In this document: piece after piece, positions 10,348 through 52,447 of the stretch
How the letters are laid out: each line of letters opens with the position of its first letter
Position numbering within the stretch: the first letter of the stretch is position 1
IMG/VR virus record: IMGVR_UViG_3300031999_000020
Location: 1 to 60,654 of that record
From: a virus
Lineage: Duplodnaviria > Caudoviricetes
Reading direction: 5' to 3' (one strand)
DNA: 60,654 bases
Notes under the pieces: generated by a model
Database searches by the model: none
What the model was told of the DNA's origin: nothing
Seen by the model: the letters and a program-made list of their open reading frames with translations, nothing else
Translations under genes and position numbers: made by a program

Positions 10348-10356
10348 CGCACGTGT

Positions 10357-10390: not shown

Positions 10391-10491
10391 CGAGTTCTAT
10401 ATGCCGTTAGGTCTTGATGATAATGTTGCTGGTATTTTTGAGAGTATCAAGCGGCACTCGGCTGAACCTAAAGCGTTAAAAAGGATGCCTT

Positions 10492-11584: not shown

Positions 11585-11586
11585 CT

Positions 11587-11841: not shown

Positions 11842-12003
11842 GGTAGGGGAATAAACAGGAAACTTTTGAAAAAAAGCGGCGAATAAACATATTACGCGGC
11901 ACTTCCACGATGTGGCCCGTGTTACGAGCAGGCAGAAGGGGTAGCAGGACTCTTGTCGCATTAACTGTAAGGGAAGGATCTTTAGAAACAACGGAAGGCT
12001 AAA

Positions 12004-18575: not shown

Positions 18576-18853
18576 GCATAAGTCAGATATCAACAGCCCG
18601 CGCGAAGCGCCAAGCCCGCGCCATGCGTTCAGCGCGCAAAGAAATTCAATCACGAAAGATTCCGGCCGTGAATGCCATGCGCGCCGTAGGCATCAAGCAA
18701 GAGCCCGGCAGCGTACTCCTTCAGCTATTCAGTGACATTGAACAGAAAAATTTGCTGGCCATTGTTAAACTCAATACCACTGGTATTAAGGACCTAAACG
18801 ATAATCTCTGTGCGGCCGCCGGACTGGAAAAGGGGCTTATTTGGGCACCATAG
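18572..18853 (+). CDS. Hypothetical protein
   Basis: SD aggag; ATGA overlap. Confidence 0.65.
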   Translation: MSISQISTARAKRQARAMRSARKEIQSRKIPAVNAMRAVGIKQEPGSVLLQLFSDIEQKNLLAIVKLNTTGIKDLNDNLCAAAGLEKGLIWAP

Positions 18854-18854
18854 T

Positions 18855-30290: not shown

Positions 30291-31927
30291 TACTCACCTA
30301 TCTCGCCCAAAAGCGTATCGCCGAGGTCAGACCGATTACGCACTGCCTGCGCTTTAGCTGTCTGGCGCGCATACCAGGCGCTAGTAATTCCACGTAGATC
30401 ATTTATGATAACACGTCTTTGTTCCCGCAGATACAGTTCAAATGGGGTCTTAACCGGCGCCAGTGTTCGTTCCGGATTTGCCCAGTTGAGAAACGAATCC
30501 GCCACAGAGCCCGGTAAAGGCAATATCCATGGCTGCAAACTGTCGTTATATGCTGTAACCCGAGCAGCAGTATACGCACTCCGCACGACCGGACTCTTAA
30601 ATCTATCTACCGCTATCCCGTTGACCAGTGTATCAAAATGCGCGATAGGCATCCGGCTAAAGACATCTTGTGTGCGTAATTCAGGTTTAGCCAAATAATC
30701 GTTAACATAACCCTGTAACTCAGCGAGTGGTCTTTTCAAGTACTGCGTCGTCTGAGGGCTCAGCCGTAACTGCGTCTGGACCGCCTCTTCAAACGTCGCG
30801 GGAGGACGCTGCGTCTGTCCGGTAGATGGCTGTGCAGCCCCGGCACGGCCGCCTTGCGGTCCAGCATTTGTCGGGTTTCGAAGTTCTTGTATCTTCTGCT
30901 GGTAAACAGAGCCGCTCAGTGCAAGTTGCGCTTCTTGCAACTTCTGAATATCTTTCTTGTCTGCTTCGTTGACCGTTGCGATCAGTCTTTCTCGTCCAGT
31001 CTTAGGATCAATATATGCATATTCCGTAAGCGGATCAGTCGATGATGGCACATACCGCGGATTTGGTACTTTATTGCCCACTTCGTCGGTCTGATAAAAG
31101 CTGTCAGTCCCCACCTTCCACTGCTTAGCATGATTCATAACTAAACTAGGAACGTCTTCTTTAGTTAATTTAAATTTACTTAAATTTAGCGCTCGAAGCC
31201 CATCATTTGTAGTCTCGGCTGTATCCACTAACTGCTTATAGGCCGGACCATTCTTTTTGATATTGTTTGCATGCGCTGCGCTTAAACTCTCTATCTGCAG
31301 CTCTGTTCCCACACGCTGACGTGTAGCTGGGTCTATATCTTGCCTCTGTAGAATACTACCCAGAAGTTGCGCGCGTGCGCCTGGACGCTGGCTGAACAAG
31401 TCATTAAAATCTGTACCAAACGCTGCGTTTACAAGTTCGTCTGCGGTCGTGTCCTTACTGCGTGTAAGCGTCTTATAATCATTTGCTTGTTTGAACGTGT
31501 CTGCTTGATACTGAGCCTGCTCCCGTGTGGCTTTTAACTGTTCAAGTTTAGTATCAGCAATCGTCTGTTCGTTAGTTTTCGCATACTTGAGATTAATATC
31601 TGTAATATCATTCTGCGCCTGAGCAGTATCTACGCGTGTCTGTGCGAGTTGATTCGCGCGCTCAATACTCTCCGGTGACGCCGCATTCTGCGCTATCGCG
31701 GCCTGAGCCTGTGCTCCCTGAATCTTAGCCTTATTAAGTTCAATCTGCTGAAAGCCGGAATAAATATCCAGTCCAGTTTGAATACCTTTTATACCGCCCT
31801 GAATGAGTGCAGTTGTAGTAGATGGCAGCGCATTACCGGCGTTTATTCCAGCGTTTGCTGCCTGTGGATAGAGGTTAATATCAACCGGCGCCTGCGGGTA
31901 TGGGGTAAAGATATCATAGCCGGCCAT
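30290..31927 (-). CDS. Putative ejection / internal virion protein
   Basis: Q/A-rich helical N-terminus; directly upstream of the SLT giant protein. Confidence 0.6.
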   Translation of the reverse strand: MAGYDIFTPYPQAPVDINLYPQAANAGINAGNALPSTTTALIQGGIKGIQTGLDIYSGFQQIELNKAKIQGAQAQAAIAQNAASPESIERANQLAQTRVDTAQAQNDITDINLKYAKTNEQTIADTKLEQLKATREQAQYQADTFKQANDYKTLTRSKDTTADELVNAAFGTDFNDLFSQRPGARAQLLGSILQRQDIDPATRQRVGTELQIESLSAAHANNIKKNGPAYKQLVDTAETTNDGLRALNLSKFKLTKEDVPSLVMNHAKQWKVGTDSFYQTDEVGNKVPNPRYVPSSTDPLTEYAYIDPKTGRERLIATVNEADKKDIQKLQEAQLALSGSVYQQKIQELRNPTNAGPQGGRAGAAQPSTGQTQRPPATFEEAVQTQLRLSPQTTQYLKRPLAELQGYVNDYLAKPELRTQDVFSRMPIAHFDTLVNGIAVDRFKSPVVRSAYTAARVTAYNDSLQPWILPLPGSVADSFLNWANPERTLAPVKTPFELYLREQRRVIINDLRGITSAWYARQTAKAQAVRNRSDLGDTLLGEIGE

Positions 31928-37933: not shown

Positions 37934-39793
37934 CTACGTTTGCATCTCAGTACAGCCGCCAAAATCATCTACTGCCCAATCATCATCGCACGCGCAATTA
38001 CATATAGCCACCTTTGGGTACTCCTCACATTGAGTAAGCGTATCCGGCTCTACCTCCGGTGTGGCTTTAATTCTGAGTTCATGCAGTTCCCAATAAATAC
38101 CCCAGAGAGTAATCATCAGTTGAATTTTCTTAAACACTCTAAACAGATCATGAGTAATCGGACTTCCGGCCTGATCATTTTCCGGATCTCCAATTGAAAA
38201 ATCTCTAATATGCTGTGGCCCGAATCCATTAATGAAACAACCATCCGGCATATCACAAGTCCGCCAAGGCGCCAGATGTGTGCGCTCACCGAGCGGCAAA
38301 AAACATGCGCTATGCGACGGTTTGTAATCTACCTTTATCTTAAAGTCGCCCTTGAACGTATCAAAATTAAAATCAACAGAGTGAAGCCCCTTGTTAAGAA
38401 AAGGATCCTTCAAATCATATTCTCGCGTGTATACGCGACTGCGTACCGGACGAATCATATCATCCGCAGTATCATAATTGATATCAGGATTAATCTCATA
38501 AAGTTTATTTACTGCGCCATCTTTAGACATGATAAATGCGCGTTCATTAACAGTACACATATCCATTGGATTAACACCCGTCCAAAGCCCAGTCCAAACA
38601 GGCTTGCTCGGAACACCGAATGACGACAATGCATCAAGTTCTAATATGACCATACCTCCATGAGCGTAATCTTTAATTGGCTTAAACGTATCGAAGTCTA
38701 CTGCAGATACTCGATATGGATTTACACTGAAGAATATCTTGTTTCGAAAATATCCAACAAAGCCAAACTTTATTAAGTCTCTGTCCCAGTATTTGAACCA
38801 CTGCTCTGTTTCTCTGGAGATAGGAACCCTGGCCCAGCGTTTCTGCTCATCGCGGCTCATAGATAATGAACGCACGAAGCCATCGTCCGCCATAAAAAAT
38901 GCATCTGAATTGACATTCGCATATGCGCGCGGACCAACAACACCGGCGTTATAACAAACAACCGAACCGAAAGGCCCAGCCTGCCACGCAGACCGCGGAT
39001 TCTGCGTTCCAAAGGTATACACCGCATTTCTGGTAGCACAGATAAGCGGTCCTATTCCGGTAGAGGTGTCAGTAAGCTGCAGAAATCCCATAAACGTAAT
39101 AGGTTCATTGACAGCATTAACGGGAAGATTGAATATCTGACCATAATACGCGCTGCCAGGAGTGAGTACTTCCTTGAACGTCACCGGAGCGTCCGGCGCC
39201 GCAACGCTGCCAAGAGGATCACCGCCGGTAAAATCAGAACCAGCATTTACAACAAATAATCGACTTTGATTATATGTACCGTTAGTCGATACCGGAATTT
39301 CCATCTTAGCAGGATCTGCGCGGTATGCATGAAAACCGTCCAATATTACCGGAAAAGCTGGAAAATCATACAGCACTAAAAAGCGTCCGGCCAGTGTCCA
39401 GTTTACACGCGAACGACGTGTATTGAGTGTAGACCCGCCATCAATTAAAATAGGTGTCAATGTGAAATTATCAATATTAATAGAGAATATTCTGCCAGAC
39501 ACCACCACAATCAAATACTGCCGGCTCATCACAGTAAATGGAATAAGCGCTTGAAACTTACCGGCCTCAAACACATTCTGATAACTGCGCGGACGTTTAT
39601 AGGGATCACTCAAGTAATCAGTAGGAAACTTAATGGCTATTCGTTCAAACCCCCAACGCGGCTGAATCGACGCACGGCGCACCGATACATTTATGCCGGA
39701 CGCATAACAGTTCTGCGCAATTCTATCCGGAATGACAGAACCATCCTGCCCTCCGGAGAAATCATCAGAACCATCTGCTAAAAGTTGAACCAC
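37934..39793 (-). CDS. Putative tail tubular protein B / DNA stabilisation (nozzle) protein
   Basis: N-terminal DFSGGQD..IAQN..GINV..RRASIQPRWG; beta-propeller-like composition; 619 aa. Confidence 0.65.
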   Translation of the reverse strand: MVQLLADGSDDFSGGQDGSVIPDRIAQNCYASGINVSVRRASIQPRWGFERIAIKFPTDYLSDPYKRPRSYQNVFEAGKFQALIPFTVMSRQYLIVVVSGRIFSINIDNFTLTPILIDGGSTLNTRRSRVNWTLAGRFLVLYDFPAFPVILDGFHAYRADPAKMEIPVSTNGTYNQSRLFVVNAGSDFTGGDPLGSVAAPDAPVTFKEVLTPGSAYYGQIFNLPVNAVNEPITFMGFLQLTDTSTGIGPLICATRNAVYTFGTQNPRSAWQAGPFGSVVCYNAGVVGPRAYANVNSDAFFMADDGFVRSLSMSRDEQKRWARVPISRETEQWFKYWDRDLIKFGFVGYFRNKIFFSVNPYRVSAVDFDTFKPIKDYAHGGMVILELDALSSFGVPSKPVWTGLWTGVNPMDMCTVNERAFIMSKDGAVNKLYEINPDINYDTADDMIRPVRSRVYTREYDLKDPFLNKGLHSVDFNFDTFKGDFKIKVDYKPSHSACFLPLGERTHLAPWRTCDMPDGCFINGFGPQHIRDFSIGDPENDQAGSPITHDLFRVFKKIQLMITLWGIYWELHELRIKATPEVEPDTLTQCEEYPKVAICNCACDDDWAVDDFGGCTEMQT

Positions 39794-41577
39794 TATGCCT
39801 CTTTAATAGCAAGCGCCATAATGTGCATTAACGTATTTGCCGCAGTAATACTTAAAGCGCGTGTAGCAACACCCAGCGCACCAGGAGTACTGCAACTATG
39901 CGATCCAGGAGTATAATTTACATATGTAAACTCAAGATGCGCATCAAATCTAAAATTTGTATTAGGCGGGATAGCAACAACTTCACTGTGGTGCCATTGC
40001 TGGTAGAACCGATGATTATAAGGATCACACGGCGTGCCCGGCCCAACACCCATAGTATGATCTTGATGTAAAGTTCTCATTGATGCCTGCACGGGCGGTG
40101 CCGGTGCCGCAGGATGCGCAGCTGTCGATTGCCCAGTAAAAGGTTCAAGCAGTGTTCTTGCCCATGAGAACTCAGTAGTGTTTATCTGCCCTTCAACTAT
40201 ATAATCAACAGTTAAAAACATCCGCATGGTGTCGCAGGTATCATTTTCAATTTCAAGTGTTTTGGTTGCTGACGCCCACGCAGGATCTGCCGGAGCGAGT
40301 GTCGTCGTCTGATCCGCATCCCACGAAAAGTCTAACTGACCTTTCTGCGCAGCAGACCAGTCTTGCGCGCAGATATCTATACGATCCGCTATTTCTTGAT
40401 CTAAATCATATCTGAGTTGGTCACAGCATGGCGCATGACAAACAGCAATTCCAACGTCAATGCAGGTGATATTAAGCGTCTGTGCTTCAATAGAATGAAT
40501 TGTAATATGCGTTCCGTCTGCAATATGTGTGATTACCCACAAAACAGCATCTGTATATGGGTCTTCAATGACAATAACATCGCCTTCAGCAAAAATTGAA
40601 CTGTCATCAACAACCAGCGTATATGTGCGAGTACCCGCAATAAGCGTAAGGCAAGCAGTCAAAATTGTACAAGTAACCTGCGGAAGATCGTAAGTCTGCG
40701 GCTCAAATAAATTCTCAGCTACATCCACACAAGTAGGAATTTGTCCTAACGCTGACGCTTGCAGTGTAGTCACAGCGCCATTGGCGCATATAACTAATGC
40801 GCCCGGAGTGGTCGGTGTTTCCGCACAAGCATCTGTAGAATACGCCGCTATTGGAGTAATACAGCGGCCCTGAGCATCAAGAGCATGAATAATCTGAAAC
40901 GGTACAACACCCGCACCGCCGATATTTTTAATAGTAATCGAATTAGCAGTCACAATAGCGGTCAACAGATATACACCATGCCCGACCTGTACGTTCTGAT
41001 TGAGCAATAAGCCCGCAGTGCTGGAAACAGAAATTGTAATAGATCCATTCAGTGCCGGAGTAGCATAATCCGCAGTTAACCAGACACCTTCACCACAGTT
41101 ATCATAAGGATCGGCCGGCGGGTCTACTACATTAAATGGAGTGCATGCGGGAATCCTGGTTCCAGGCGCTGCATTGTCCGGTTGACAATCATTGTACAGT
41201 GTCGCTGTTTCATTTACACAATCAAACGCTGTGACTTGCAAGTATCCAAAAGTCGTGTTCCAAAGAAAACTTCCAACTTGCAGCTTCTGAAGTCCTGGAA
41301 ATGTGACGGTTATTGACTGTCCGCAGGCCGGCATGTTAAAAGCAGTTCCAGCCGTAACAACCGCAGTGTATGACAAATTGGAACATACTTTAATATGACT
41401 TTCTTGACAGCCAGGAACTTCATTATAATAAGGAGCCAAAGACAAACCACAGTTACAGGGATTACATCCGCAGGTGCAGCCGGACGCCGTGCAAGGAACC
41501 GGTGTGCAAGTATCCGAACCGCACGGAACCACTCCGCTTATTTCAGTATTTACATTGTCGTCATTGTTACAAACCAT
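39793..41577 (-). CDS. Cys-rich fibre/appendage protein
   Basis: Cys-dense N-terminus; beta-rich ITISVSSTAGL / LVVDDSSIF modules; N-terminal domain paralogous to 41587-42153. Confidence 0.6.
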   Translation of the reverse strand: MVCNNDDNVNTEISGVVPCGSDTCTPVPCTASGCTCGCNPCNCGLSLAPYYNEVPGCQESHIKVCSNLSYTAVVTAGTAFNMPACGQSITVTFPGLQKLQVGSFLWNTTFGYLQVTAFDCVNETATLYNDCQPDNAAPGTRIPACTPFNVVDPPADPYDNCGEGVWLTADYATPALNGSITISVSSTAGLLLNQNVQVGHGVYLLTAIVTANSITIKNIGGAGVVPFQIIHALDAQGRCITPIAAYSTDACAETPTTPGALVICANGAVTTLQASALGQIPTCVDVAENLFEPQTYDLPQVTCTILTACLTLIAGTRTYTLVVDDSSIFAEGDVIVIEDPYTDAVLWVITHIADGTHITIHSIEAQTLNITCIDVGIAVCHAPCCDQLRYDLDQEIADRIDICAQDWSAAQKGQLDFSWDADQTTTLAPADPAWASATKTLEIENDTCDTMRMFLTVDYIVEGQINTTEFSWARTLLEPFTGQSTAAHPAAPAPPVQASMRTLHQDHTMGVGPGTPCDPYNHRFYQQWHHSEVVAIPPNTNFRFDAHLEFTYVNYTPGSHSCSTPGALGVATRALSITAANTLMHIMALAIKEA

Positions 41578-41586
41578 ATCTTGCCT

Positions 41587-42153
41587 CTATGGTACAATGG
41601 CTACTGAATGCCATTTCAGCGTTATCACATTTCCAACTATCGTATCAATATCTAAAGAGAAAGGATCACCGGCCGGAATAGGGCACGGTCCAGCAGGGAA
41701 TACAAAAATATACCCGGTATCAGTACACTGAATACAAGCATTCCACGGCGGCGCTGTAGGCGTAAATAGTGTGCATCTTGGAATCAGAGTGCCCGGCGCT
41801 GCATTTGGAGCCAGACAATCATTTATAACTTTGGTTTCACCAGAAAGACTATTGAAAGCAGTCACACGAAGATATCCATAATCTTCGTTCCAAAGGTATG
41901 ACCCAATCTGCAAAACAGTTAATCCATAAAACGAAACAACCGTTTCGACACCACACGCCGGCATAATAAAATCAGTTCCAGATGATAACGCGGCCACCAG
42001 AATCTGCTGAACATAAGGCTGACTATGGCACTCCTGAACAGCGCCAGCTTGATTGTAATACGGCGTTGGCGTGTTAGGGCTACAGGTGTCCCCACAAACC
42101 GAACAAGCTTCACCGCAGGAAGCCGTACTGTTTCCAGAACAGGTACATGCCAT
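41587..42153 (-). CDS. Cys-rich virion protein (short paralog of the 39793-41577 N-terminus)
   Basis: 13 Cys in 188 aa; shared PYYN..MPACG..LQxGSxLWN..GYLxVTAF..NDC..NAAPGT. Confidence 0.65.
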   Translation of the reverse strand: MACTCSGNSTASCGEACSVCGDTCSPNTPTPYYNQAGAVQECHSQPYVQQILVAALSSGTDFIMPACGVETVVSFYGLTVLQIGSYLWNEDYGYLRVTAFNSLSGETKVINDCLAPNAAPGTLIPRCTLFTPTAPPWNACIQCTDTGYIFVFPAGPCPIPAGDPFSLDIDTIVGNVITLKWHSVAIVP

Positions 42154-42434
42154 TAGCGTATCCTCAGTAACTCGGGCAACAAATACCTGCCCACTAGGTC
42201 CAATACCATAATAATTCCACCAATTATCAGACCCACTTTCCAGGCAAGCGCATCAATCCTAAATCCAAGTTCTTGAATCTTCATTAGCAGCTCCGCCTTT
42301 TCCTTTCCGATAAGCATAAGTGCCGCAGCAGCCTGCTCCTGAAGGGACTGGATTCTAATCTCAACGATCTCCAGCCGCCGGTCATAAGCCGTATGCCTCC
42401 GGTTACACTCATCGGATAGTATCGGGTCATTCAT
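42153..42434 (-). CDS. Coiled-coil protein with C-terminal TM helix (holin/XhlA-like candidate)
   Basis: WKVGLIIGGIIMVLDLVG TM segment. Confidence 0.55.
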   Translation of the reverse strand: MNDPILSDECNRRHTAYDRRLEIVEIRIQSLQEQAAAALMLIGKEKAELLMKIQELGFRIDALAWKVGLIIGGIIMVLDLVGRYLLPELLRIR

Positions 42435-42703
42435 TTTACCTCTTCCGGGGCCTGAGTCGGAACAGGAGTGGCTTTCTCCACAGCAATCGCTCTCTTGCAG
42501 ATAACGACAATCCCCTTTTGCACCTGGGATACGAGGTCCGCCTGAGCAGCAGAGACGTTTATCGTGCCGAAGGCTTGCAGGATTTGCTCGCAGTCCTTAG
42601 CGGTGTCGGGCTTTTGCTGCTGTAGCGGCGCATAGTCAGGGCTAACCGGCTCAGCCAAAGCCAAGGTCGGGACAAGTAGGGTCAAGAGTATACATTTCTT
42701 CAT
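42431..42703 (-). CDS. Small exported protein (possible fibre chaperone)
   Basis: Signal peptide MKKCILLTLLVPTLALA; two Cys in the mature part. Confidence 0.65.
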   Translation of the reverse strand: MKKCILLTLLVPTLALAEPVSPDYAPLQQQKPDTAKDCEQILQAFGTINVSAAQADLVSQVQKGIVVICKRAIAVEKATPVPTQAPEEVK

Positions 42704-42715
42704 AGTGTGGTTCCT

Positions 42716-44008
42716 TTAGGTGGTTGTACAAACGCAAACATCAGCGGTGTTATCAGAGCAGGATACGATGTTGTATCCCAAAGCCGCAGTGTTCTGCCCA
42801 AAGACACATCCCTTGTTCGCCCCACAAGTTGTGGTGCAGGCAGTATCGGCTCCAGTAGCCACACGCCAACCAATGTCAGTGGCAGTGGTGCGGATGGTGC
42901 CCGCAGCAAGCACGGCTTTGTCGTTACTGATGCGAAGCGCCTCTGCCGGTGTTGCGGAACCGTCGGGAGAGACTTTAAATACAAAACGGCCAGGCATATC
43001 ACCAGCGCCAGGAACGCCGTCAACATTAACCTCCAATATCGCAGCATCTTTAAAATCTACCCCATCAGCACCCGTAAAATATATCTTACCTAGGGCGTCT
43101 GCATTAGCCACAATAGTGTCTGCGGTACCGTCCGATGCCCGAGATTTTAAAAAGGCAATCACAGGTGACGCTGCTGAATTGGCACCGCCAGCAAAGACGG
43201 TATTATAATGACTACCTGGACTTGTATGAAACGTGTAGTTTTCGGCGGTTCCTACACTAGTCGTAACATCAGCAGGCATGGCTGCCAGCCCGTGTATGAT
43301 GCTAGTAGTCGTTTTCGCCATCACGATATTCCCGCCGGTGGTGGCGTCTTGGGTGAGGTTGCCGGAGTTGTCGGATATCAGCCAGCGGGAAAGCCCCCTA
43401 TTCTGAAAGGTGATATTGCCATTGGCAGTTGTCTGTAAATAAATAGACCCTCTAGCAGTGGTTCCAGCGGTAATGTAAATTTGCCCCTCTGCGCTACCAA
43501 CCTCGTTACCCTTCATGGTAATGCAAGCGCCTTCTGTTGGGTCGCAAGACGATCCGGCTGTTAGCGCTAGCGTCCCATCATCCGCATCCACACCCCGCAC
43601 CCCGCGAATCGTGGCGACGGAGGAGGCGGTGGACGTATAACCAAAAACCAAATCGGAGGTCGTAGACGCCCCCATCCTGGGCATGTTCCAACCAATGTAG
43701 CCGCCAGGATTGAAAATGATACCACGAGACGATGCTACGTCCCCACTTTCAAGCGTTAACGTACCCGCGTACCCTCCAGCGTTTTCGTTGCCACCGCCAA
43801 GGATGGAAGCTCCGCGAGTGTTCGTCAAACATGCACCGCCACCACTAATGCAAAAAGCATTATTATCCGCCCCATCAATCGTATTGGCCGTAATCGAAAA
43901 CGGAGCGGGGGCGTCGAAGTACTGGTTGTAGTGGAAGTAGCGATGGGAGAAGTCCTGTGCACTAAGCAGCGTCGGGATGAGAAGCAAGATGAGAAATAGC
44001 TTTTTCAT
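42716..44008 (-). CDS. Fibre-like beta-repeat protein with signal peptide
   Basis: True start MKKLFLILLLIPTLLSA-QD (SD gaggat); KSR..GT..IVANADALGKIYFTG..DMPGRFVF..PAEALRI fibre module; Cys-rich C-terminal tip. Confidence 0.75.
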   Translation of the reverse strand: MKKLFLILLLIPTLLSAQDFSHRYFHYNQYFDAPAPFSITANTIDGADNNAFCISGGGACLTNTRGASILGGGNENAGGYAGTLTLESGDVASSRGIIFNPGGYIGWNMPRMGASTTSDLVFGYTSTASSVATIRGVRGVDADDGTLALTAGSSCDPTEGACITMKGNEVGSAEGQIYITAGTTARGSIYLQTTANGNITFQNRGLSRWLISDNSGNLTQDATTGGNIVMAKTTTSIIHGLAAMPADVTTSVGTAENYTFHTSPGSHYNTVFAGGANSAASPVIAFLKSRASDGTADTIVANADALGKIYFTGADGVDFKDAAILEVNVDGVPGAGDMPGRFVFKVSPDGSATPAEALRISNDKAVLAAGTIRTTATDIGWRVATGADTACTTTCGANKGCVFGQNTAALGYNIVSCSDNTADVCVCTTT

Positions 44009-44016
44009 AGTATCCT

Positions 44017-45216
44017 CTATGGTAAAACTGATACACGCTTCCACGGGTCGGCAGATGCGGACATTACGCTCGCGAGATACGCCTCCACTACCGCTTGATT
44101 GGCGGGGGAGAGGGCGGTATTGAAGGCGAGGAGTTCGAGAATGGAGCCGTTGAAATCGTTAGTCGCATAACCTAAAAATAACGTGCCACTCAGATCGCCA
44201 GTATTGCCAGAGGCCACGGAGGGAGCCGCAGCCACGCCATCTATGGAGAGGTCTATATTTCCGCCCGAATGAATCGCCTTTACTACCGAAAGCGTATTCA
44301 CAGTAAACGCTTTGACAATGGTATCCGCCCCGGTATCAAAGTTTTTATAAGTCAGATCGGCGGTACTACCATACAGTTGCATATACCCGCCAGTGTCCCT
44401 GAAGATGTTTTGAGTACCGGCGGCTGCGTTGGCTCTGAGAACTAGATATGTAGTTTTTGCATTGTTCGCATAAATATCTGCCAGGGTCGCCGTGGATGTC
44501 ATCGCAACATCCACCCCATCGAACCGCACCACCGGCAGGCAATGATTCCCCGCCGTGTTGCAAGACCCTCTGTACTCTGGATACGTGGTGGTCGCCTGAT
44601 AGGTGCTGTCGGCAAGGGAGGATGCAACGCTCCACTGCGTTACTTCCACCTGACCAAATCCCGCAGCGTTTGTATCCTGCAAACCAAAAGTAACATTCCC
44701 ACCAGCAGCCTTACCAAGTACCGTTACGGTATAGTCTGCTAGAGCAGCCGTTACTGTAATCGCTGTAGTGTTGCCGGTAGCAGAGCCCGTATGCATTAAA
44801 GTTAGCGCCGTGTTCCCCGTTACGGCTCTTGCCTTAATGGTAAATCGGTAGGATTGGCCTGCCAGGGTGGAGATTGCCCGAGCGATAGATCCATTCTGCG
44901 CTGTAAACGTACCCAGAAGGGCGCTGTTTGCCGTTACGTTTGTTTTCGTCCACGCTGCATTGGAAAGGTCGTCGCTATAGGTAAACCGATTCTCCCTATT
45001 ATCCCCCCTGCTGACCAACGGCTGATTGCCAGCAGTCGCCTGGGTAAACCCCGCAGCCACGCTGCCCTGATTCGCCCATGCGGATACGCCCTTTAGCGCT
45101 GTGACGGTAAGGCCCTTGTAGCTCTTTAGCCAAAGGGTAGGCGCTAACGCTTTTACGGCAGCTTCGTCAGCAAATGCCGTTGAGACAAGTAGGAGTAGGG
45201 ATAGTAAATATCTCAT
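44017..45216 (-). CDS. LamG/concanavalin-like lectin-fold protein with signal peptide
   Basis: MRYLLSLLLLVSTAFA-DE; LWL..VSAWANQG..TQATAGNQP..VVRFDGVD..FNGSILELLAFNTALS..VEAYLA. Confidence 0.75.
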   Translation of the reverse strand: MRYLLSLLLLVSTAFADEAAVKALAPTLWLKSYKGLTVTALKGVSAWANQGSVAAGFTQATAGNQPLVSRGDNRENRFTYSDDLSNAAWTKTNVTANSALLGTFTAQNGSIARAISTLAGQSYRFTIKARAVTGNTALTLMHTGSATGNTTAITVTAALADYTVTVLGKAAGGNVTFGLQDTNAAGFGQVEVTQWSVASSLADSTYQATTTYPEYRGSCNTAGNHCLPVVRFDGVDVAMTSTATLADIYANNAKTTYLVLRANAAAGTQNIFRDTGGYMQLYGSTADLTYKNFDTGADTIVKAFTVNTLSVVKAIHSGGNIDLSIDGVAAAPSVASGNTGDLSGTLFLGYATNDFNGSILELLAFNTALSPANQAVVEAYLASVMSASADPWKRVSVLP

Positions 45217-45217
45217 G

Positions 45218-45676
45218 TTACTTGAAGCTCGAAATGTTAAACGCTCCCGAAGCAGGGGCCGCCGTACCGTCTTTTACCCAGACATGCACGGTGGTAATCA
45301 GGCCAAACTGAGCCAAGTTTAGTGCCAGAGTATCCCCGCCCTTCATGGAGTAGTGGTCCGTCACCCCTCCGTCTAAACTAATCACCACATCGCCGTTTGT
45401 CTGGTTATCAAAGAGCACCATCTTGGTGCCATCCGGCAGGTCCAGCACATCAGCGTAGGCTGCTCCGATACCGGCAGGGAGTGTTACGTCCATAGTGGCA
45501 AAGGTGGCGGCGGTGGTGGGGACATTTGCTACGATATTAACCGTCGTGTTTCCACTCGCATCGCACAGAACAGGAATCTTAGTCCCAGTAGGCGTCTTAC
45601 ATTGTATATTTGACGCCGAGTTCTGCGCATATGCAGTGCTTGAGATAAGGAAAAGAATCAGTAATAGCTTTTTCAT
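45218..45676 (-). CDS. Exported beta-sandwich protein (paralog of 45682-46107)
   Basis: Signal MKKLLLILFLISSTAYA-QN; IGAAYA..DLPD.T..V.FDNQT. Confidence 0.75.
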   Translation of the reverse strand: MKKLLLILFLISSTAYAQNSASNIQCKTPTGTKIPVLCDASGNTTVNIVANVPTTAATFATMDVTLPAGIGAAYADVLDLPDGTKMVLFDNQTNGDVVISLDGGVTDHYSMKGGDTLALNLAQFGLITTVHVWVKDGTAAPASGAFNISSFK

Positions 45677-45681
45677 TGTTC

Positions 45682-46107
45682 TTACCCCATCGCATAAATT
45701 AAAAAGTTACCAGCCGTAGCTGCTACAGTCCCGCGTTTTATATGAATAATCGCAGTCGATACTCTACCAATAGCAAAGAAGTTTATCGCAAGCTGCTGCC
45801 CTGACTGAAGCCAATAAGTATCATGCACCCCCGCGTCCATACTGACTTTTATATCAGCGTCGGTTTGGTTATCAAACATGACCTCTCGGGTGTCATCTGG
45901 AAGATCAGTACCAAGAGCATAGGCTGCACCTATAGCCGCAAAGCCGGTGGCGCTCATTTCAGTAAATCCAGCATTTGTGTCCGGAGTAGGCGGATTTACT
46001 ATATAGTCGGTTATTCGACAGAGCAGATAAAGCATGGCTTTCCGCCATGACATTGAATCTCTATAATGCAGATCCGGACAGATACAAGGGTCGCACTTAT
46101 CGGGCAT
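45682..46107 (-). CDS. Beta-sandwich protein with Cys-rich N-terminus and no signal peptide
   Basis: MPDKCDPCICPD..; SD aggagaagg; C-domain paralogous to 45218-45676. Confidence 0.75.
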   Translation of the reverse strand: MPDKCDPCICPDLHYRDSMSWRKAMLYLLCRITDYIVNPPTPDTNAGFTEMSATGFAAIGAAYALGTDLPDDTREVMFDNQTDADIKVSMDAGVHDTYWLQSGQQLAINFFAIGRVSTAIIHIKRGTVAATAGNFLIYAMG

Positions 46108-46129
46108 GACCTTCTCCTTTAACTAAACA

Positions 46130-47224
46130 CTAATCACAAATTGCCACTTTCACAGCAGCGCTGTTAATCTTCATATTTGCATATTTTCCAGTAGCAATTG
46201 TACAAGCACCTGCTCCAGTTGTTCCAAAGTCTGACCAGGGAATTCCGGCCACAGTTTTAAGAATAACGTTTCCACCTTCGGACGCATCTATCGTAATATT
46301 ACCTGCGTCCGCAGAAATGATACGTATCGCACCGCCAGCTCCCGGACCACCATAGTCCGCGCCATCCAGTGCAATTCGTCCACCACGCGACACTGCAATA
46401 CCGCCGCCACCACTAATAATCATTCGTCCACTATCAGTTCCCGGACTAGAAGAATTCATAATGTAACCGATCCAGCCGCCAGAGCCCAATTCTCCGTAAT
46501 ACAATTCAGAAGTGCCAGCCACAGACGGAGACATAAACCACTTCTGCTCTCCATTAACATTAAAATCTATGTACCCAGTAGCTCCATCTGAATCAAGTAC
46601 AATATCACCAGAACCGGCGGTATTTAGTGTCAAATCTCCGTTATCCGCAGTAGAAATAAGAACATCACCACCCAAACCAGCACCACCTCTGTCAGCGCCA
46701 TACAAATCAATAAAAGCTCCGCGAGATCCGCCTACCGCTCCGCCACCAGATATTGTAAATCGATCATCATCGTTACCGATAGATGTGGCCGCCAATATTT
46801 TAGCATGCCAATTTCCAGTTCCACTCTTTCCATAATACAATTCTGAGTTAGAAGCAGCCGAAGGCGCCATAAACCATTTCTGCTCGTTTCCAGTTCTGAA
46901 ATCAATATATCCACCGGCACCATGCGCATTAAATAGAATATCACCATCATCAGCAGTTATAATTTGAACATCACCGCCCGCGCCAGCACCGCCGCGATCC
47001 GCACCAAATACCGAAACAGAACCTCCACGAGAACTGCTAGTTCCAGTTCCACCGCCGCCGGATATATTCATTCGACCGCTATCCGTTCCGTTTGGTGTGT
47101 TAGCGTTAATAGTAAACGCAGACGCGGTATACTTATAATCACCAGCAAAATAGCGACTGGTATTCTGCGCGAACGCAGATTGCGCAAAAATTAACAAACT
47201 AATCAGAATAACAATCTTTTTCAT
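46130..47224 (-). CDS. Gly-rich fibre-like repeat protein with signal peptide (paralog of 42716-44008)
   Basis: Start MKKIVILISLLIFAQSAFA-QN (SD agagga); about three internal repeats of roughly 100 aa (ISGGG..SRG..GADRGG..EQKWFM..SELYYG). Confidence 0.75.
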   Translation of the reverse strand: MKKIVILISLLIFAQSAFAQNTSRYFAGDYKYTASAFTINANTPNGTDSGRMNISGGGGTGTSSSRGGSVSVFGADRGGAGAGGDVQIITADDGDILFNAHGAGGYIDFRTGNEQKWFMAPSAASNSELYYGKSGTGNWHAKILAATSIGNDDDRFTISGGGAVGGSRGAFIDLYGADRGGAGLGGDVLISTADNGDLTLNTAGSGDIVLDSDGATGYIDFNVNGEQKWFMSPSVAGTSELYYGELGSGGWIGYIMNSSSPGTDSGRMIISGGGGIAVSRGGRIALDGADYGGPGAGGAIRIISADAGNITIDASEGGNVILKTVAGIPWSDFGTTGAGACTIATGKYANMKINSAAVKVAICD

Positions 47225-47232
47225 AATTCCTC

Positions 47233-47532
47233 TTATGGAGAAGTACAGCGCCAAGCCATATACTCTGCCAAGCAGTTATTACAGAAGACTCCCGTTATAT
47301 TACAACTTTCAAGAGGGACGTTAGGATCTAAGAGCAATGCTTCGTCGTAAGTGAACGTATATGAATACTTCGTTTGGCCACAAAACGAATTACCACAATC
47401 CATATTAATGAGTGTTGCTTCAAGAAAAGGAATTGCATCAGCCATCACAGAAGGATCCATGCACAAGATCACATCAACCGGCGGACATCCACACCCTAGT
47501 TTATTAAGTGATGTGTATACTACTGATTTCAT
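47233..47532 (-). CDS. Cys-rich small protein (paralog of the 47529-48956 N-terminus)
   Basis: KLGCGC..ILC..YDEALLLDP..ITGVFCNNC. Confidence 0.7.
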   Translation of the reverse strand: MKSVVYTSLNKLGCGCPPVDVILCMDPSVMADAIPFLEATLINMDCGNSFCGQTKYSYTFTYDEALLLDPNVPLESCNITGVFCNNCLAEYMAWRCTSP

Positions 47533-48956
47533 GCCCACTCCAGCGTTACTACAGTTCCAACGACACCTTTAATTTTTAAAGATGTTCCAGGAGCGCCGGC
47601 AGCAGCTGGAAGTTTATACTCAAGATTGGCGGCCTGTACTTGAGCTTCAAAAGAAGAATAATTAGTGCCGGTGTAAGTAACCGACACATTAGGTTCAAAA
47701 AACTTTACTTTACGAGCAACACCGGTAATGTTGCCTATCCACAGATCCACATTGCCAAAATAAGCTATACCAGAAAATGCGGACAGATCCGTATAAGTAT
47801 AGTTTGGCGTAGCCTCATCAATCGTATCAGCCGCCTGGTATCCTACACTTTTTGTTCCAAGTTGTAATCCAACCCCACCAAGGATCGCCGAAGCGTCGGT
47901 GTCCTCTAATAAATTCCATTGTCCGGCAAGAATAGTATTGCCTTTCAGATCTTCGTCACCTGCATTAGTTATTCTGTTTCTGGAACCCGCACCAATAAAT
48001 GCACGCCACGAACCAACAATATAATTATTCTTACCGGCAACAATACATGCGGCATCTGCGGCTTGAAGCGGTGCTGATACATCACCAATCACGTTTAATA
48101 CACCAGCTACGACACACGAAGACTCTGTGTAGTTCACAGTATTTTCTGCACCAGCTATAATCGAACAATGATTAGCCTCTGTAATATAATTATTTCTGCC
48201 AAATATAATACCATTACCAGCGCCCAGCCTATACTGAGCAGACATCTCAATAATATTAAGTGCCCCACCTCCAATAAAGCTGACATCACTTAATGTAATA
48301 CTATGCCTCTCTCCTCCGCCAATAACCGATGCCACACACGTATCAATAGTATTTGTATAACCACCAGCGATTACACTATTATATGCATAATTAACGGGAT
48401 CATCACTATAAGTTGACAAAATAGAATTAATAGCGCTGCTAGAACCACCACTTAAAACTGCACCCCCAGACACACCGGCACCAACAACATTTCCTGAATA
48501 TCCATCAATTAGAATAGGACAATCAGCATCAGGAACGGTTCGCCTAGCGCGCTGATTATTTACCCTGACATCAAACGGAACATCATCAGTTGTTCCACAA
48601 AATTCAACATCAATCGTATTACCGCCATTTCCGGCTAACAACCACGACGGACTATGTGTTAGAATAGAATTAATCAGATATTCTAAATAAGCAGTCTGAC
48701 AACCTTTACAAAAGATCCCAGTGATATCAAATGAATTTAAAACATAAGTAGGATCTGTCAGCAGCGTTTCGTCGTATTCTAGATAATAATTGTACGAATC
48801 ACAGCCATTACAATCAGCTGTAGTTATGATATTGGTAAGCGTGGCTGGAAGAAAATCGCTGCCGTCTGCCAAAAGATTATCAGTCAAGCAGAGAATAATA
48901 TCACTGTCGCAGGAACATGTGAGCTTTGTGCTCGACCGGTAAATGAAGCTTCTCAT
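47529..48956 (-). CDS. Fibre/spike protein: Cys-rich N-terminal domain plus beta-helix (S-x-I-x-G-G-x-x-N repeats)
   Basis: WLLAGN..FCGTTDDVP..RVNN; SVIAGGYTN / SVIGGG / SFIGGG repeats. Confidence 0.75.
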   Translation of the reverse strand: MRSFIYRSSTKLTCSCDSDIILCLTDNLLADGSDFLPATLTNIITTADCNGCDSYNYYLEYDETLLTDPTYVLNSFDITGIFCKGCQTAYLEYLINSILTHSPSWLLAGNGGNTIDVEFCGTTDDVPFDVRVNNQRARRTVPDADCPILIDGYSGNVVGAGVSGGAVLSGGSSSAINSILSTYSDDPVNYAYNSVIAGGYTNTIDTCVASVIGGGERHSITLSDVSFIGGGALNIIEMSAQYRLGAGNGIIFGRNNYITEANHCSIIAGAENTVNYTESSCVVAGVLNVIGDVSAPLQAADAACIVAGKNNYIVGSWRAFIGAGSRNRITNAGDEDLKGNTILAGQWNLLEDTDASAILGGVGLQLGTKSVGYQAADTIDEATPNYTYTDLSAFSGIAYFGNVDLWIGNITGVARKVKFFEPNVSVTYTGTNYSSFEAQVQAANLEYKLPAAAGAPGTSLKIKGVVGTVVTLEWA

Positions 48957-48974: not shown

Positions 48975-49002
48975 AAAAAGAGGGGGGTCCGAGACCCCCC
49001 TC
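48975..49002 (-). terminator. Intrinsic terminator after the capsid gene
   Basis: Minus strand gaggggggtc-tcg-gacccccctc-ttttt. Confidence 0.85.
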
Positions 49003-49015
49003 AACCTAATTCACA

Positions 49016-50860
49016 CTAAGACACACACTGAGTAATCGTCGGAGCACCACCGCACGCGGGACAGGTTGAATCTGTCGCCGGAGGTACGCAGACCCCGATA
49101 ATACCCTTAACCAAGCAAATAGACGACTCATCCAAGTCTATGATATACGTATTATGGAGTATATCAACCGCATGAATCTCCAAGGTTTCACTGGTTCCGT
49201 CGCCGTAGTAGACAACGACATCATCACCAGCGCCGGCCTTAATGTTATTCTTCAGGATCACCATTATGTCATCAGGTAACATTCCAGCCTGCGTGTAACT
49301 CAGCACGTCCGAATAACAACCGCGAGTCTCATCGCAGTAGATCGAGACGAACTGGTCACACAACGTCGGAGATATGCTCATAGTTACTTCCAAATGCAGA
49401 CCATCGGCCGAGATCGCCACGATGACCGCAGTGACGTAACCACCCTGCAACAGACCCAACTGGATTGTAGCCCCAACACCCACCGCGCTCGGAACCGCAA
49501 GCGTGATGAAGTACTGTCCAGGCACCGCCGGGTTCGGAATCGCCGGACCAAGAATCAGCGGACACGGGCAGCCGGTACTCGGAATTAAGTTGCCACACTC
49601 TTCCGCAGCCGGAGGACACTCAGGTTGGACATTGAACTTCACCGCAGTAGCCGCATACGGACGCTCAACCAGGACGCCGAACAGACCCTCAGAGAACTGA
49701 GGACAGACGCCCAGACTAGCCGAGGTCAGGTAGTAACCAGACCTGCGCAGTGGATCATCAACCGTTTGCGGATTAATCCACTGGAAAGCGTCGAACCAAG
49801 CGTACTCCGGACCAAACGATGAGCCTTCGCCCAAAGTCTGCGCAGTTGGCATGTAGAAAATCTTGGCCGGGTATTTCCCGAAGAACAAGACCTCTTCGTA
49901 CCGAGAGATTGCCGGATTGAGATAATCCGGATTAACACTCGTATACTCGCCAACCAACGCCGGCACCTGATTCACATATGGCATCACACGACTCAGATTA
50001 CCAGCCGCATCACGCGAAAACCTGCGCGGGAATAGGATGGTAGTCGGAATGAACATATTCCGAATAGTCGAAGTGAAGTTGTACTTCTCAACCAAGTCGT
50101 TCGCCGCGCCGCTGAACCGCACGTCAAAGCGTAACGTCGGATCATCACGGTACATGTGACTAATTAGCTGCTGAGAACACATCATTGCAAACAGCGGCGC
50201 GCTATTCTGAACCGCGTACGGTACGCAAGTCGGCAAATAACGCATCTGCTCGTACATCTGCTCACACATGTCCACACTCAGCCGACCAAGAACGACTCCA
50301 CCGGTATTCGGATAAGCGTACGGCATGCCGATATTGGGCTTGAGTCCGCCACTGTCCTGAACATACTTCTTGGACAAATTGGAGATGATGTTGTGCGCGA
50401 TGTTGACTTCCTTCATGAACGCAATCTGACGATACAGATTCTGTATGATCATGGAAAAGACCTGATCATACATGTAGGTCGTCTGAATCGCTTTCACGCA
50501 GAAGGACGGCGATCTGAACTGTCTTTCACCAAGTTCAACTTCTTTCTCATCGAACCCGTTTCCAGACAGTGTGGTAATATTGTAACCACAGTCGCCAACA
50601 CACGGCACACATCCAGTTGTGTTAGGAAGTTTCTTCCACTGAGACAAGTCCTCTTCAATCGCGGGCATCCCGCCTCTGAAGAAAAGCTGTTTCATTGTGG
50701 TGCCCTGCCCCAAAGGCCACTCTTCCATCTGAAGAGTATCGGCCAAGAAGGACGGATGCACCTGAGTTAAATCATAGATAGTTTTGGAAATCATGGGCGC
50801 GCCCGAAAGGAACGCCTGATTGACTTCCACTTCATTCATGAAGCAAGTTTGAGAAGTCAT
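49016..50860 (-). CDS. Major capsid protein with Cys-rich C-terminal extension
   Basis: Follows portal and scaffold; has its own promoter, SD gaggtg and downstream terminator. The fold itself was not verified. Confidence 0.75.
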   Translation of the reverse strand: MTSQTCFMNEVEVNQAFLSGAPMISKTIYDLTQVHPSFLADTLQMEEWPLGQGTTMKQLFFRGGMPAIEEDLSQWKKLPNTTGCVPCVGDCGYNITTLSGNGFDEKEVELGERQFRSPSFCVKAIQTTYMYDQVFSMIIQNLYRQIAFMKEVNIAHNIISNLSKKYVQDSGGLKPNIGMPYAYPNTGGVVLGRLSVDMCEQMYEQMRYLPTCVPYAVQNSAPLFAMMCSQQLISHMYRDDPTLRFDVRFSGAANDLVEKYNFTSTIRNMFIPTTILFPRRFSRDAAGNLSRVMPYVNQVPALVGEYTSVNPDYLNPAISRYEEVLFFGKYPAKIFYMPTAQTLGEGSSFGPEYAWFDAFQWINPQTVDDPLRRSGYYLTSASLGVCPQFSEGLFGVLVERPYAATAVKFNVQPECPPAAEECGNLIPSTGCPCPLILGPAIPNPAVPGQYFITLAVPSAVGVGATIQLGLLQGGYVTAVIVAISADGLHLEVTMSISPTLCDQFVSIYCDETRGCYSDVLSYTQAGMLPDDIMVILKNNIKAGAGDDVVVYYGDGTSETLEIHAVDILHNTYIIDLDESSICLVKGIIGVCVPPATDSTCPACGGAPTITQCVS

Positions 50861-50873
50861 AAAGATACACCTC

Positions 50874-51022
50874 AAGTGTTAGTCGAAAAAACAAAACTCA
50901 AAATTAGCCTAGTGGCTAATTTACTCTTATTTTTCCGAATCCAACACTTACGGTGTCAGCGGCGATAAGATTCGAACCTTATCGGATCTGGACTGCAGTA
51001 ACGCGCGCAGTGCTCGTACTGC
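50874..51022 (-). ncRNA. Structured 5' leader of the capsid gene (candidate cis-regulatory RNA)
   Basis: Three stem-loops, one with a GGTTCGAATC T-loop-like apex, and a long stem ending at the SD. Confidence 0.5.
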
Positions 51023-51055: not shown

Positions 51056-52447
51056 TTATTTTTTAAGTGCCACCGCCGCATGCTCACGGCTCATTCGCGC
51101 AGCCTGCTCCGGGGTCATCCGCTCGGCCGGCGCGTTGGCCGATGTGCCGTTCATTCCACTGGTACTGCCCACCGCCGGCCGGTTGAACTTACGGCCCGCC
51201 ATCGCGTCCGCGGCCAACGTCTGCGCGTGCTTCATCGCCGAATCTCTGATGGTCGCCTGTACGCCAGTGGCGTGCGCAAGCTGGCACATGTTGGCCAATG
51301 CGAACGCCAATTCATCGGGCAGCGTACGCAAACCATTATCAAACAGATGTTTTACAATCTTACCGTATTCCATCCCAGCTTTCGTCAAAACAGGTTTGAC
51401 ATACGTATTATTATGGGCGTCATCACCCGGCTGAAATATGAGTTCTGGTAGTAATCCCGAATCCTTATGCGCCTCAAGCGACGATACCCAACCTTTGCGC
51501 GATGCCTGATGCACCGCACTCAGTCGTTCTTTTTGCTGGGTTTCTTCCGCGGCTTGAGCGTCTTTGATGAGTTTTTCAAGCGCTGTCTTCGGCGCCTGCT
51601 CAGCCGCTTCCGCTTCAGTCCGCAGAGTTTGAACCTGGCGTACAATATCGCGAGCATCCTGAGCCCCCAATGGATCAAAGTGTTCAGACAACCACCGATT
51701 CAAGTCTGCCTGCGTCTCCTGCGCAGACATCTCCTGTAAGCTCTCAGGTGGCAGGTCATACTCAGTTAAGAGTGCTTGCAACTTACCCTGAAGCGTTGTA
51801 AGTGGTTTAATATACTCGTCTTGGTATAATCTGCTGGTACGCAGCGCATGCAAATGCTCCAGCGGCTCAAGTTGCGCGATACGTGCTTCCTTCTCCTGCA
51901 AGACCTCCGACACCGCAACACCTGTCTGGTAGTCCTCAAGCTGTTTCTTGAGTTTGGCTGACTCAGACTTCGTGGTCTGCAGTTCAGCCTTGACCTCTTT
52001 GACAATAGTTCTAAGTGCTTTAAAATTCTCAACCTTCGGATCTGTCTCAACTTCGCCCTCTACTTTAGCAGCATCATCAGATGGTTGTGTAGTTTCGTCA
52101 TCTTTTTTGTCCTCCGGCATATCCAGTGCTGGAACAAACTCGCTCAAGTCTTCCGGTGACGCATCTGGGGCCGGGACTGCCGGCGCTGGTGCTGTTGCCG
52201 GGATTGCCGGTGCCGATGCAGGCAATGGATTAGGAAGAACCTTGGGCGCCTCAAATCCGCCATCTGGCATAACCATGCGCCGGCTAGCCTCCGCAACAGG
52301 GTTCACAAGCGCTTTAATTTGGTCTAGGGTAGGACCACCTGGATCATGTCTACCCAACACCGCCTGGTTGATTACCGGTGGTGTGGATACGCTTGGCGTA
52401 GAGCTTTGAATAGATGATGTCTGGATCTGTCCCGGCAATGATGGCAT
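51056..52447 (-). CDS. Putative capsid scaffolding protein
   Basis: P/A-rich disordered N-terminus, ENFKALR coiled coil; lies between portal and capsid. Confidence 0.7.
   Translation of the reverse strand: MPSLPGQIQTSSIQSSTPSVSTPPVINQAVLGRHDPGGPTLDQIKALVNPVAEASRRMVMPDGGFEAPKVLPNPLPASAPAIPATAPAPAVPAPDASPEDLSEFVPALDMPEDKKDDETTQPSDDAAKVEGEVETDPKVENFKALRTIVKEVKAELQTTKSESAKLKKQLEDYQTGVAVSEVLQEKEARIAQLEPLEHLHALRTSRLYQDEYIKPLTTLQGKLQALLTEYDLPPESLQEMSAQETQADLNRWLSEHFDPLGAQDARDIVRQVQTLRTEAEAAEQAPKTALEKLIKDAQAAEETQQKERLSAVHQASRKGWVSSLEAHKDSGLLPELIFQPGDDAHNNTYVKPVLTKAGMEYGKIVKHLFDNGLRTLPDELAFALANMCQLAHATGVQATIRDSAMKHAQTLAADAMAGRKFNRPAVGSTSGMNGTSANAPAERMTPEQAARMSREHAAVALKK

Follow-up and report, generated by a model that had tools for sequence, protein, structure and literature searches.

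We analysed the tailed-phage record IMGVR_UViG_3300031999_000020, a complete genome of 60,654 bp with direct terminal repeats (hereafter, the window), and found that five genes in its minus-strand late operon encode proteins with predicted Sec-type signal peptides (leaders). They are all but one (g5) of the six consecutive genes g1 to g6, and we read them as an accessory, fast-recombining cassette among the fibre genes of this phage, whose capsid is of the N4/T7 type. An earlier note on this DNA had proposed that their products are exported, fold in the periplasm (some of them with disulfides), and then either attach to virions at lysis or act as host-surface or receptor-blocking proteins. The first part of this proposal is well supported by sequence. 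The leaders are real and conserved, cysteine pairs co-vary with them and the mature parts are fibre-, lectin- and beta-sandwich-like, which makes export followed by periplasmic disulfide folding the best reading; judged from sequence, Sec export and periplasmic folding of the cassette proteins are probable. Of the two roles proposed to follow, virion attachment is narrowly favoured over a host-surface or receptor-blocking role.

Five leaders and the proteins behind them

The six genes are listed below, with lengths in amino acids (aa).

42431..42703, minus strand: g1, a small predicted exported protein of 90 aa with a 17-residue leader, a mature start EPV.. and 2 mature Cys.
42716..44008, minus strand: g2, a tail-fibre homologue of 430 aa with a 17-residue leader, Gln at +1 and 10 mature Cys, including a C-terminal 6-Cys cluster.
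44017..45216, minus strand: g3, 399 aa, with a 16-residue leader, a mature start DEA.., a Cys pair at 219/226, a variable middle domain and the C-terminal domain of a Laminin_G_3-containing family.
45218..45676, minus strand: g4, 152 aa, with a 17-residue leader, Gln at +1, a linker with a Cys pair at 26/38 and, in the structure model, a jelly-roll at residues 55-152.
45682..46107, minus strand: g5, a leaderless g4 paralogue of 141 aa with the N-terminus CxxCxC...C (46% identity to g4 over 96 aa, E 1e-25).
46130..47224, minus strand: g6, a g2 paralogue of 364 aa with a 19-residue leader, Gln at +1, three ~100-aa Gly-rich fibre repeats and a Cys pair at 341/363.

The five N-termini quoted in the earlier note are present on the minus strand at the starts it named (42703, 44008, 45216, 45676 and 47224) and, by rule, all five show the canonical anatomy of Sec leaders cut by signal peptidase I. 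Each carries one or two Lys/Arg residues in its n-region (MKK or MRY), an uncharged stretch of 11-14 residues, Ala or Leu at -3 and Ala at -1, and the rule-based cut falls after residue 16-19 in every case. The predicted +1 residues of g1, g2, g3, g4 and g6 are Glu, Gln, Asp, Gln and Gln, that is, Gln in three of five. None of the five leaders has a lipobox Cys at +1 or a twin-arginine (RR) motif, and nothing else in the proteins resembles a membrane span, the Kyte-Doolittle mean over 19 residues reaching at most 1.32 in the mature parts. The mature cysteine counts, in the same order, are 2, 10, 2, 2 and 2, all even and in close pairs. All five starts fit operon packing: those of g2 and g6 lie 6-9 nucleotides (nt) past the upstream stop, and an AGGA/AGAGG motif stands 3-8 nt upstream of the g1, g2 and g6 starts. 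A crude leader rule flagged 10 of the 69 open reading frames of the window, five within this block of six consecutive genes and five among the other ~63; by our arithmetic, five of six adjacent genes at ~8% per gene would occur by chance at ~2e-5 per position and ~1e-3 genome-wide. Three lines of evidence given below (leaders kept in homologues, the size of the families and cysteine content) indicate that the leaders are selected and not a product of chance. Signals that would carry the proteins past the periplasm were also sought, and neither a C-terminal sorting domain of type IX secretion (Por_Secre_tail or other, Pfam E<=0.1) nor an autotransporter barrel was found in the five proteins.

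The earlier note made its reading depend on whether homologues keep these signals. They do, retaining the features of the leader while its sequence drifts. Relatives came from two protein alignments used as queries and from one metagenome scan; single-protein scans of viral contigs with the capsid protein and with g3 returned no close relatives. Four proteins, namely g6, its homologues P0010 and P0011 and a 578-aa protein of the related locus L004, have four different leaders, each with a small-x-small motif that precedes Gln. Their mature start is conserved: those of g6, P0010 and P0011 hardly differ, and that of the L004 protein, 31% identical over its whole length, has diverged further. In P0002 and P0003, the g3 leader and its flanks are almost unchanged and the middle domain is replaced. 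One fixed rule called leader-like 29 of 48 members of the g2 family, 15 of 78 representatives of the g4 family, two of four g6 hits and three of seven g3 hits, counts from a rule that missed at least two obvious leaders (P0021, with a mis-called start, and P0039, with a Lys in the scored segment) and mis-set a few sites. Gln stands at +1 in 16 of the 29 leader-like g2-family members and in 9 of the 15 g4-family members, versus 2.8% Gln overall.

Cysteine content follows the leader. Leader-like members of the g2 family contain 1.94 Cys per 100 aa versus 0.60 in leaderless members (Mann-Whitney p 8e-7), with an even Cys count in 25/29 and 10/16 of them, respectively; the g3 Cys pair is found only in the three members with a g3-type leader. 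From sequence, this is the pattern expected for proteins that fold in an oxidising compartment. The leaderless g2-family homologues are ordinary tail fibres, for example a 481-aa fibre after a lambda-J-like gene in the locus L005.

The description of the mature parts as fibre repeats, a LamG-like lectin and a small beta-sandwich holds for g2 and g4 and applies to g3 indirectly, through members of its family. Residues 113-409 of g2 match the tail-fibre families PHROG 18345 and 9942 (E 6e-20 and 1.9e-18). Its structure model, with a predicted local distance difference test score (pLDDT) of 71 that exceeds 90 at residues ~290-370, matches the T5 L-shaped tail fibre 4uw7 (Foldseek E 1.7e-5) and 113 viral models at E<=1e-3, mostly cyanophage fibres. 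By tblastn against 50,697 phage records, only residues 258-383 were matched, in 28 cyanophage records at 29-48% identity, and none of these records covered 80% of g2. The paralogue g6 is 30% identical to g2, and its own PHROG and Pfam matches are sub-threshold only; the two have the mature N-terminal segment in common, a conserved stretch of ~40 residues with the start Q-x-x-S-x-R-Y-F... that recurs in many homologues. A scan of 185,579 species genomes, seeded on two short motifs from this conserved region, confirmed no g2-family relative. PDB sequence searches with g3 and with a g2/g6 profile gave no match, and g1, g3 and g4 matched neither Pfam nor PHROG. For g3 itself this holds in Pfam at E<=0.1, while Laminin_G_3 (PF13385) was matched by three of eight aligned g3-family members (best E 1.2e-11); two distant members of that family have a ~100-residue N-terminal extension in place of the leader. 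The g4 model is an eight-stranded jelly-roll (mean pLDDT 85.9, 96-99 over residues 60-152) whose structural neighbours at Z 6.5-9.1, a generic range for jelly-rolls, include viral spike, turret and cement proteins, Ena pilins, YomS and XepA; Foldseek against the PDB gave no match at E<=1e-3. A homologue of g1 (87 aa, 32% identity over 38 aa, E 1e-4, a weak match) occupies the same position in L004, with a leader.

Setting of the cassette and alternative N-termini

The genes and signals that flank the cassette are the following.

39793..42153, minus strand: two leaderless proteins of 188 and 594 aa with a second type of Cys-cluster N-terminal domain (46% identical to each other over 113 aa, E 1e-28).
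42153..42434, minus strand: coiled-coil protein of 93 aa with a C-terminal membrane span and a weak XhlA/'hemolysin' PHROG match (phrog_1193, E 0.02).
47233..47532, minus strand: Cys-rich protein of 99 aa, which by alignment is the N-terminal domain of the leaderless fibres standing alone.
47529..48956, minus strand: leaderless fibre-like protein of 475 aa with the same Cys-rich N-terminal domain, within which the similarity between strains breaks.
48980..49002, minus strand: terminator-like hairpin between the capsid gene and the cassette (10-bp stem, 8 G-C pairs, T-run).
49016..50875, minus strand: major capsid protein of 619 aa with an HK97-like core (~residues 23-410) and a Cys-rich C-terminal extension, from language-model and structure neighbours.

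The earlier note placed the five genes between capsid and tail genes. The upstream limit stands, as the capsid protein is of the HK97 type, with Phage_capsid_3/4 and N4 gp56-like proteins among its neighbours by language-model features and structure; the supposed tail genes downstream have no family match. The late operon runs on the minus strand from ~56.5 kb down to 23.3 kb. A D5-type primase gene also lies on this strand, and the plus strand carries the replication set, comprising an SNF2 helicase, a DUF2800 nuclease, an Enc34-type single-stranded DNA-binding protein, a family-A DNA polymerase, a methylase and two glycosyltransferases. A 2,334-aa protein has an SLT lytic transglycosylase domain at its N-terminal end. 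Most structural proteins, including the capsid, portal and tail-region proteins, matched no PHROG or Pfam family, and no similar cultured phage was found at the DNA level, which together point to a poorly known lineage of tailed phages. A PDB sequence search with the terminase-like protein gave no match. The hairpin directly follows the capsid gene and implies that the TTG start listed for the 475-aa gene (49004) is wrong and that the gene begins at ATG 48956; apart from this strong hairpin, a promoter and terminator scan gave counts close to shuffle expectation. An ARAGORN call of a tRNA-Cys inside the 3' half of g1 (88 nt, 42442-42529, minus strand) is probably false, with no Rfam family in the window and no tRNA at the gathering threshold.

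At 684-1196, the window encodes an SLT lytic transglycosylase of 170 aa whose hydrophobic N-terminal segment resembles that of a signal-anchor-release (SAR) endolysin, just downstream of a gene for a 93-aa protein with a lipoprotein-like N-terminus (197-478). The two probably form a lysis cassette, far from the XhlA-like gene, and the SAR-like segment suggests that the phage may use Sec for lysis as well. The two family-2 glycosyltransferases (18810-19607 and 19974-20693, plus strand) lie in the early/middle region and may act on phage DNA or on glycans of the host surface. In species genomes, the phage glycosyltransferase has no close relative.

The cassette is mosaic between strains. In a sister strain (L002 and L003), DNA identity is 94% through the capsid gene to window position 48672 and then falls to ~71% or becomes unalignable; a g6-type leader gene is still present beyond this break. 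A 47-bp stretch just downstream of the sister-strain capsid gene (L002 1250-1296, L003 2510-2556) is identical to window 52037-52083, in a scaffold-like gene, and may be a trace of recombination where the variable cassette begins. In L004, whose capsid protein is 49% identical, the gene order is Cys-fibre, Cys-small, leader g6-type, two g5-type, leader g2-type (998 aa), leader g1-type, XhlA-like and Cys-type. The gene for the Cys-rich 99-aa protein stands always just upstream of the g6-type gene (window, L002, L004). The XhlA-like protein, whose gene g1 overlaps by 4 nt from directly upstream, keeps its architecture and position in L004 with no significant pairwise similarity, and the 188- and 594-aa proteins have homologues in L004, L009 and L011. 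Four further capsid relatives are 38-47% identical, and L010 is a truncated copy of L009.

At least five leaderless proteins of the fibre module start with Cys clusters (39793-42153, 45682-46107 and 47233-48956). Three formats occur: the first is CxxCxC...C, the second a domain of 100 residues in which ~8 Cys positions are conserved, and the third a CxC-rich run followed by a conserved beta domain. Cys-rich C-terminal tails are found in the capsid protein (49016-49600) and in a 619-aa protein at 37934-39793. Such clusters and tails could mount fibres on the particle through metal or disulfides, and in this respect the match of the g4 fold to Ena pilins recalls the disulfide-linked N-terminal connectors of the latter. 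Among 58 aligned members of the g4 family, 17 are leader-type, 15 Cys-type and 26 other. In the family tree, the Cys-type and leader-type members each cluster; with 98 columns and 2 of 55 branches well supported, this poorly resolved tree supports only the clustering of N-terminal types and no order of events. In P0087, a g4-like jelly-roll is fused to a third N-terminal module, the 100-residue Cys-rich domain, which in the window occurs both alone (47233-47532) and at the head of the 475-aa fibre. Relatives also have proteins in which a Cys-type N-terminus precedes collagen repeats and a region weakly similar to pectate lyase. The distant capsid relative L011 encodes, at 8624-13186, three Cys-cluster-headed proteins with long collagen triple-helix repeats, recognised by Pfam in 8624-10441 and 10438-11916 and by eye from the N-terminus in 11918-13186. 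From these N-termini we infer that the Cys cluster would be the cytoplasmic, virion-mounting format and the leader an alternative address.

Likeness to known systems

Phage proteins that use the host Sec system are already known; in the window, leaders are found on an entire set of proteins of fibre, lectin and jelly-roll type. Its closest counterpart in a cultured phage is in Cellulophaga phage phi18:3 (KC821620), reportedly from the work of Holmfeldt et al. 2013. Three consecutive proteins of this phage, gp085, gp086 and gp087 (547-785 aa), have Sec-type leaders and Gln at +1, and their GenBank record annotates them as structural 'based on experimental MS/MS proteomics analysis' (MS/MS, tandem mass spectrometry). 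This is the only cultured-phage case we verified of leader-bearing proteins recovered with virions. The three differ from the window proteins in having few Cys (0, 1 and 3), in lying apart from the main structural module and in having a known host, Cellulophaga baltica. In Cellulophaga phage phi46:3, the annotated structural proteins in 38-73 kb have no leaders.

The layout is also found outside phages. The MAT fibres of Bdellovibrio bacteriovorus combine a signal peptide, a conserved ~130-aa N-domain, a trimeric shaft like that of phage tail fibres and an exchangeable tip (TNF-like, lectin or beta-sandwich; PMC10769870). The g2 model matches the C-terminal domains of Bd1334 and Bd2439 (E 2.8e-4 and 4.7e-4) and the g4 model the tip of Bd2133 (Z 6.2-6.3). 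MAT genes are, however, chromosomal genes of a predatory bacterium that displays the fibres on its own surface, whereas the window genes lie in a phage late operon, and the likeness of the N-domains is one of layout. Within PBSX, XepA is a beta-sandwich protein encoded in the late operon between the tail-fibre genes and xhlA, and is exported in phage development and absent from particles (PMC6834076). The window leader proteins likewise adjoin an XhlA-like membrane protein, and the g4 fold resembles XepA and YomS of SPbeta at Z 6.5-6.8, in the generic range; in contrast, XepA is a pentameric dumbbell from a phage of a Gram-positive host, with no sequence-family match to the window proteins. 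XepA is not known to have a classical leader.

Among coliphages, Cor of T1 and phi80 and Lom of lambda are small proteins that are exported to work at the envelope of the host and whose genes adjoin those for receptor binding. Llp of coliphage T5 is reported to be another (PMC9586334). Lom forms a barrel in the outer membrane and the other two are lipoproteins, and none is known to be homologous to tail fibres, whereas the window proteins have no lipobox and include fibre homologues. Phages of Porphyromonas gingivalis also carry genes for uncharacterised leader proteins with a predicted signal-peptidase-I site that exposes Gln (PMC10367356, with the rule from PMC5837995). These phages are temperate, and PMC10367356 does not report their leader proteins as tail-fibre homologues. 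Conventional fibres (the T5 pb1 C-terminal domain, 4uw7/4uw8, and those of cyanophages) share with g2 the shaft fold and a ~100-aa module, g2 residues 258-383, but they have no leader, a particle-binding N-terminus and often a C-terminal S74 chaperone, where g2 has a leader and a terminal 6-Cys cluster. We found no paper on leader-bearing tail-fibre homologues in tailed phages in the full-text literature, a search with most subscription journals outside its reach. To call the cassette an undescribed system, as the earlier note did, is therefore fair for the literature searched; it is not unique, as leaders occur in dozens of members of the g2 and g4 families.

Export, virion docking and the alternatives

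On the reading we favour, the host Sec translocon would export the five proteins late in infection and signal peptidase I would cut after residue 16-19, leaving Gln, likely as pyroglutamate, at the head of three of them. The mature fibres (g2, g6), the lectin-like g3 and the jelly-roll g4 would then fold and form disulfides in the periplasm. Since no onward secretion signal was found, the proteins should exit the cell only at lysis. In the last step, they would dock on released virions via the conserved mature N-terminus and serve as extra, exchangeable receptor-binding fibres, while the other fibres, leaderless and with Cys-cluster N-terminal domains, would presumably be mounted in the cytoplasm. 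The virion step is favoured because g2 and g6 have their mature N-terminus in common and differ in their distal parts, as is usual for receptor-binding proteins that can be exchanged, because the genes lie in the late fibre module and are mosaic between strains (94% falling to ~71% at the cassette), and because phi18:3 gp085-087 carry leaders and are annotated as structural from MS/MS. With docking included, the whole statement is plausible but tentative. More tentative still is a general model of two-compartment assembly, in which Sec-exported modules, oxidatively folded in the periplasm, would snap onto finished particles at lysis, with leader and Cys cluster as alternative address labels.

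Several points weigh against this reading. To our knowledge, all tailed phages studied so far assemble in the cytoplasm. The analysis found no docking partner for the mature N-termini; a complex prediction of g6 residues 20-140 with the Cys-rich 99-aa neighbour, which scored 0.00 in two runs made without controls, counts neither for nor against docking. The virion already has several leaderless fibre-like proteins. SAR-type lysins usually go with small membrane holes, so that virions would meet the contents of the periplasm only once the cell bursts. The 'structural' label of the phi18:3 proteins could reflect co-purification, and tblastn of g2 and g4 did not find these proteins among the 50,697 phage records, there being no detectable similarity. 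In addition, no leader-bearing gene occurs in the 10 kb after the capsid gene in L009 and L011 (capsid 38-39% identical), nor in L007 and L008, whose loci end 4.4 and 5.3 kb after the capsid. The absence from L009 and L011 makes the cassette dispensable for the capsid lineage; as far as sequences tell, it is conserved in a sub-lineage and mosaic.

The host signals are in conflict as well, which also counts against the favoured reading. Gln at +1 suggests a host in the Bacteroidota or another lineage that follows the Gln (high-Q) rule: mean values for Gln at +1 are 71% in Bacteroidetes, below 20% in most other groups and 77% in Ignavibacterium (PMC5837995). By contrast, Shine-Dalgarno-like motifs precede 27 of 48 genes versus a 5.8% background. 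Such motifs are rarely used by Bacteroidota, and their frequency here argues against a typical Bacteroidota host. The Bacteroidota O-glycosylation sequon D[ST][AILVMT] is not enriched in the five proteins either (6 seen, ~7 expected). A leaderless 545-aa protein (30290-31927, minus strand) has 6 such sequons versus 1.7 expected (P 0.005), an excess that, in one of 21 proteins tested, is probably due to chance.

The proteins could instead be exported and never enter the particle, remaining in the periplasm or envelope or being shed at lysis, and binding envelope glycans or the phage's own receptor. They would then mask receptors on the infected cell or on debris, exclude superinfection or, if they reached the surface, make cells sticky in the manner of MAT fibres. 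We consider this somewhat unlikely as a whole, although it has precedents. The genes lom, cor and llp are leader-bearing genes beside tail-fibre genes; MAT fibres, with the same layout, sit on a cell surface (PMC10769870); the P. gingivalis leader proteins are suggested to be possible outer-membrane modifiers (PMC10367356); and XepA is exported and not in particles (PMC6834076). The g4 (leader) and g5 (Cys-cluster) pair, together with P0087, present one binding domain with alternative addresses, and the lack of the cassette in L009 and L011 is also in keeping with such a role. Nevertheless, ~1,400 codons in five genes would be a large outlay for exclusion, no lipobox, type IX C-terminal domain or autotransporter barrel was found that would take the proteins past the periplasm, the shared N-terminus with variable tip and the strain mosaicism fit receptor-binding proteins equally well, and the phi18:3 leader proteins were found in virion preparations.

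Two further explanations appear improbable. One is that g1 and g4 at least are lysis accessories like PBSX XepA, whose target is the membrane or wall. It draws on the XhlA-like membrane protein (PHROG E 0.02) that g1 adjoins and overlaps by 4 nt, a pair that recurs in L004, on the alignment of the g4 jelly-roll to YomS (Z 6.8) and to the XepA C-terminal domain (Z 6.5), and on an XepA cluster among the language-model neighbours at 0.77. These Z scores are, however, common for unrelated jelly-rolls, 0.77 is under the lead threshold, there is no XepA Pfam match and the likely lysin (SLT, 684-1196) lies 41 kb away; moreover, g2, g3 and g6 would be left unexplained. The other, which we find equally improbable, is that the hydrophobic N-termini are not export signals, the proteins being ordinary cytoplasmic virion fibres with an N-terminus that is buried or removed by a phage protease. 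That tailed-phage parts are assembled in the cytoplasm is established knowledge, and PMC10367356 describes predicted 'signal peptides' on some capsid proteins that probably are prohead-protease substrates. Against this, the N-termini show the complete n-h-c anatomy including A-x-A, Gln occurs at +1 ~20 times more often than composition would give, the leader sequence drifts while its features are kept, the presence of a leader co-varies strongly with Cys density and even Cys counts, and the clearly cytoplasmic fibres of this phage use a different N-terminal format.

In the textbook view, tailed phages assemble entirely in the cytoplasm, and here a receptor-binding-type cassette carries working-looking export signals and the matching cysteine chemistry, in a design repeated in dozens of uncultured relatives. 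If the exported proteins do not join the virion, phages would be manipulating the envelope with exported copies of their binding modules, a new form of receptor masking or adhesion. If they join it, as we favour, phage assembly would gain an unrecognised extracytoplasmic branch, host range would depend on the Sec and disulfide machinery of the host, and receptor-binding proteins would escape any host-range predictor that leaves leader-bearing genes out of account.

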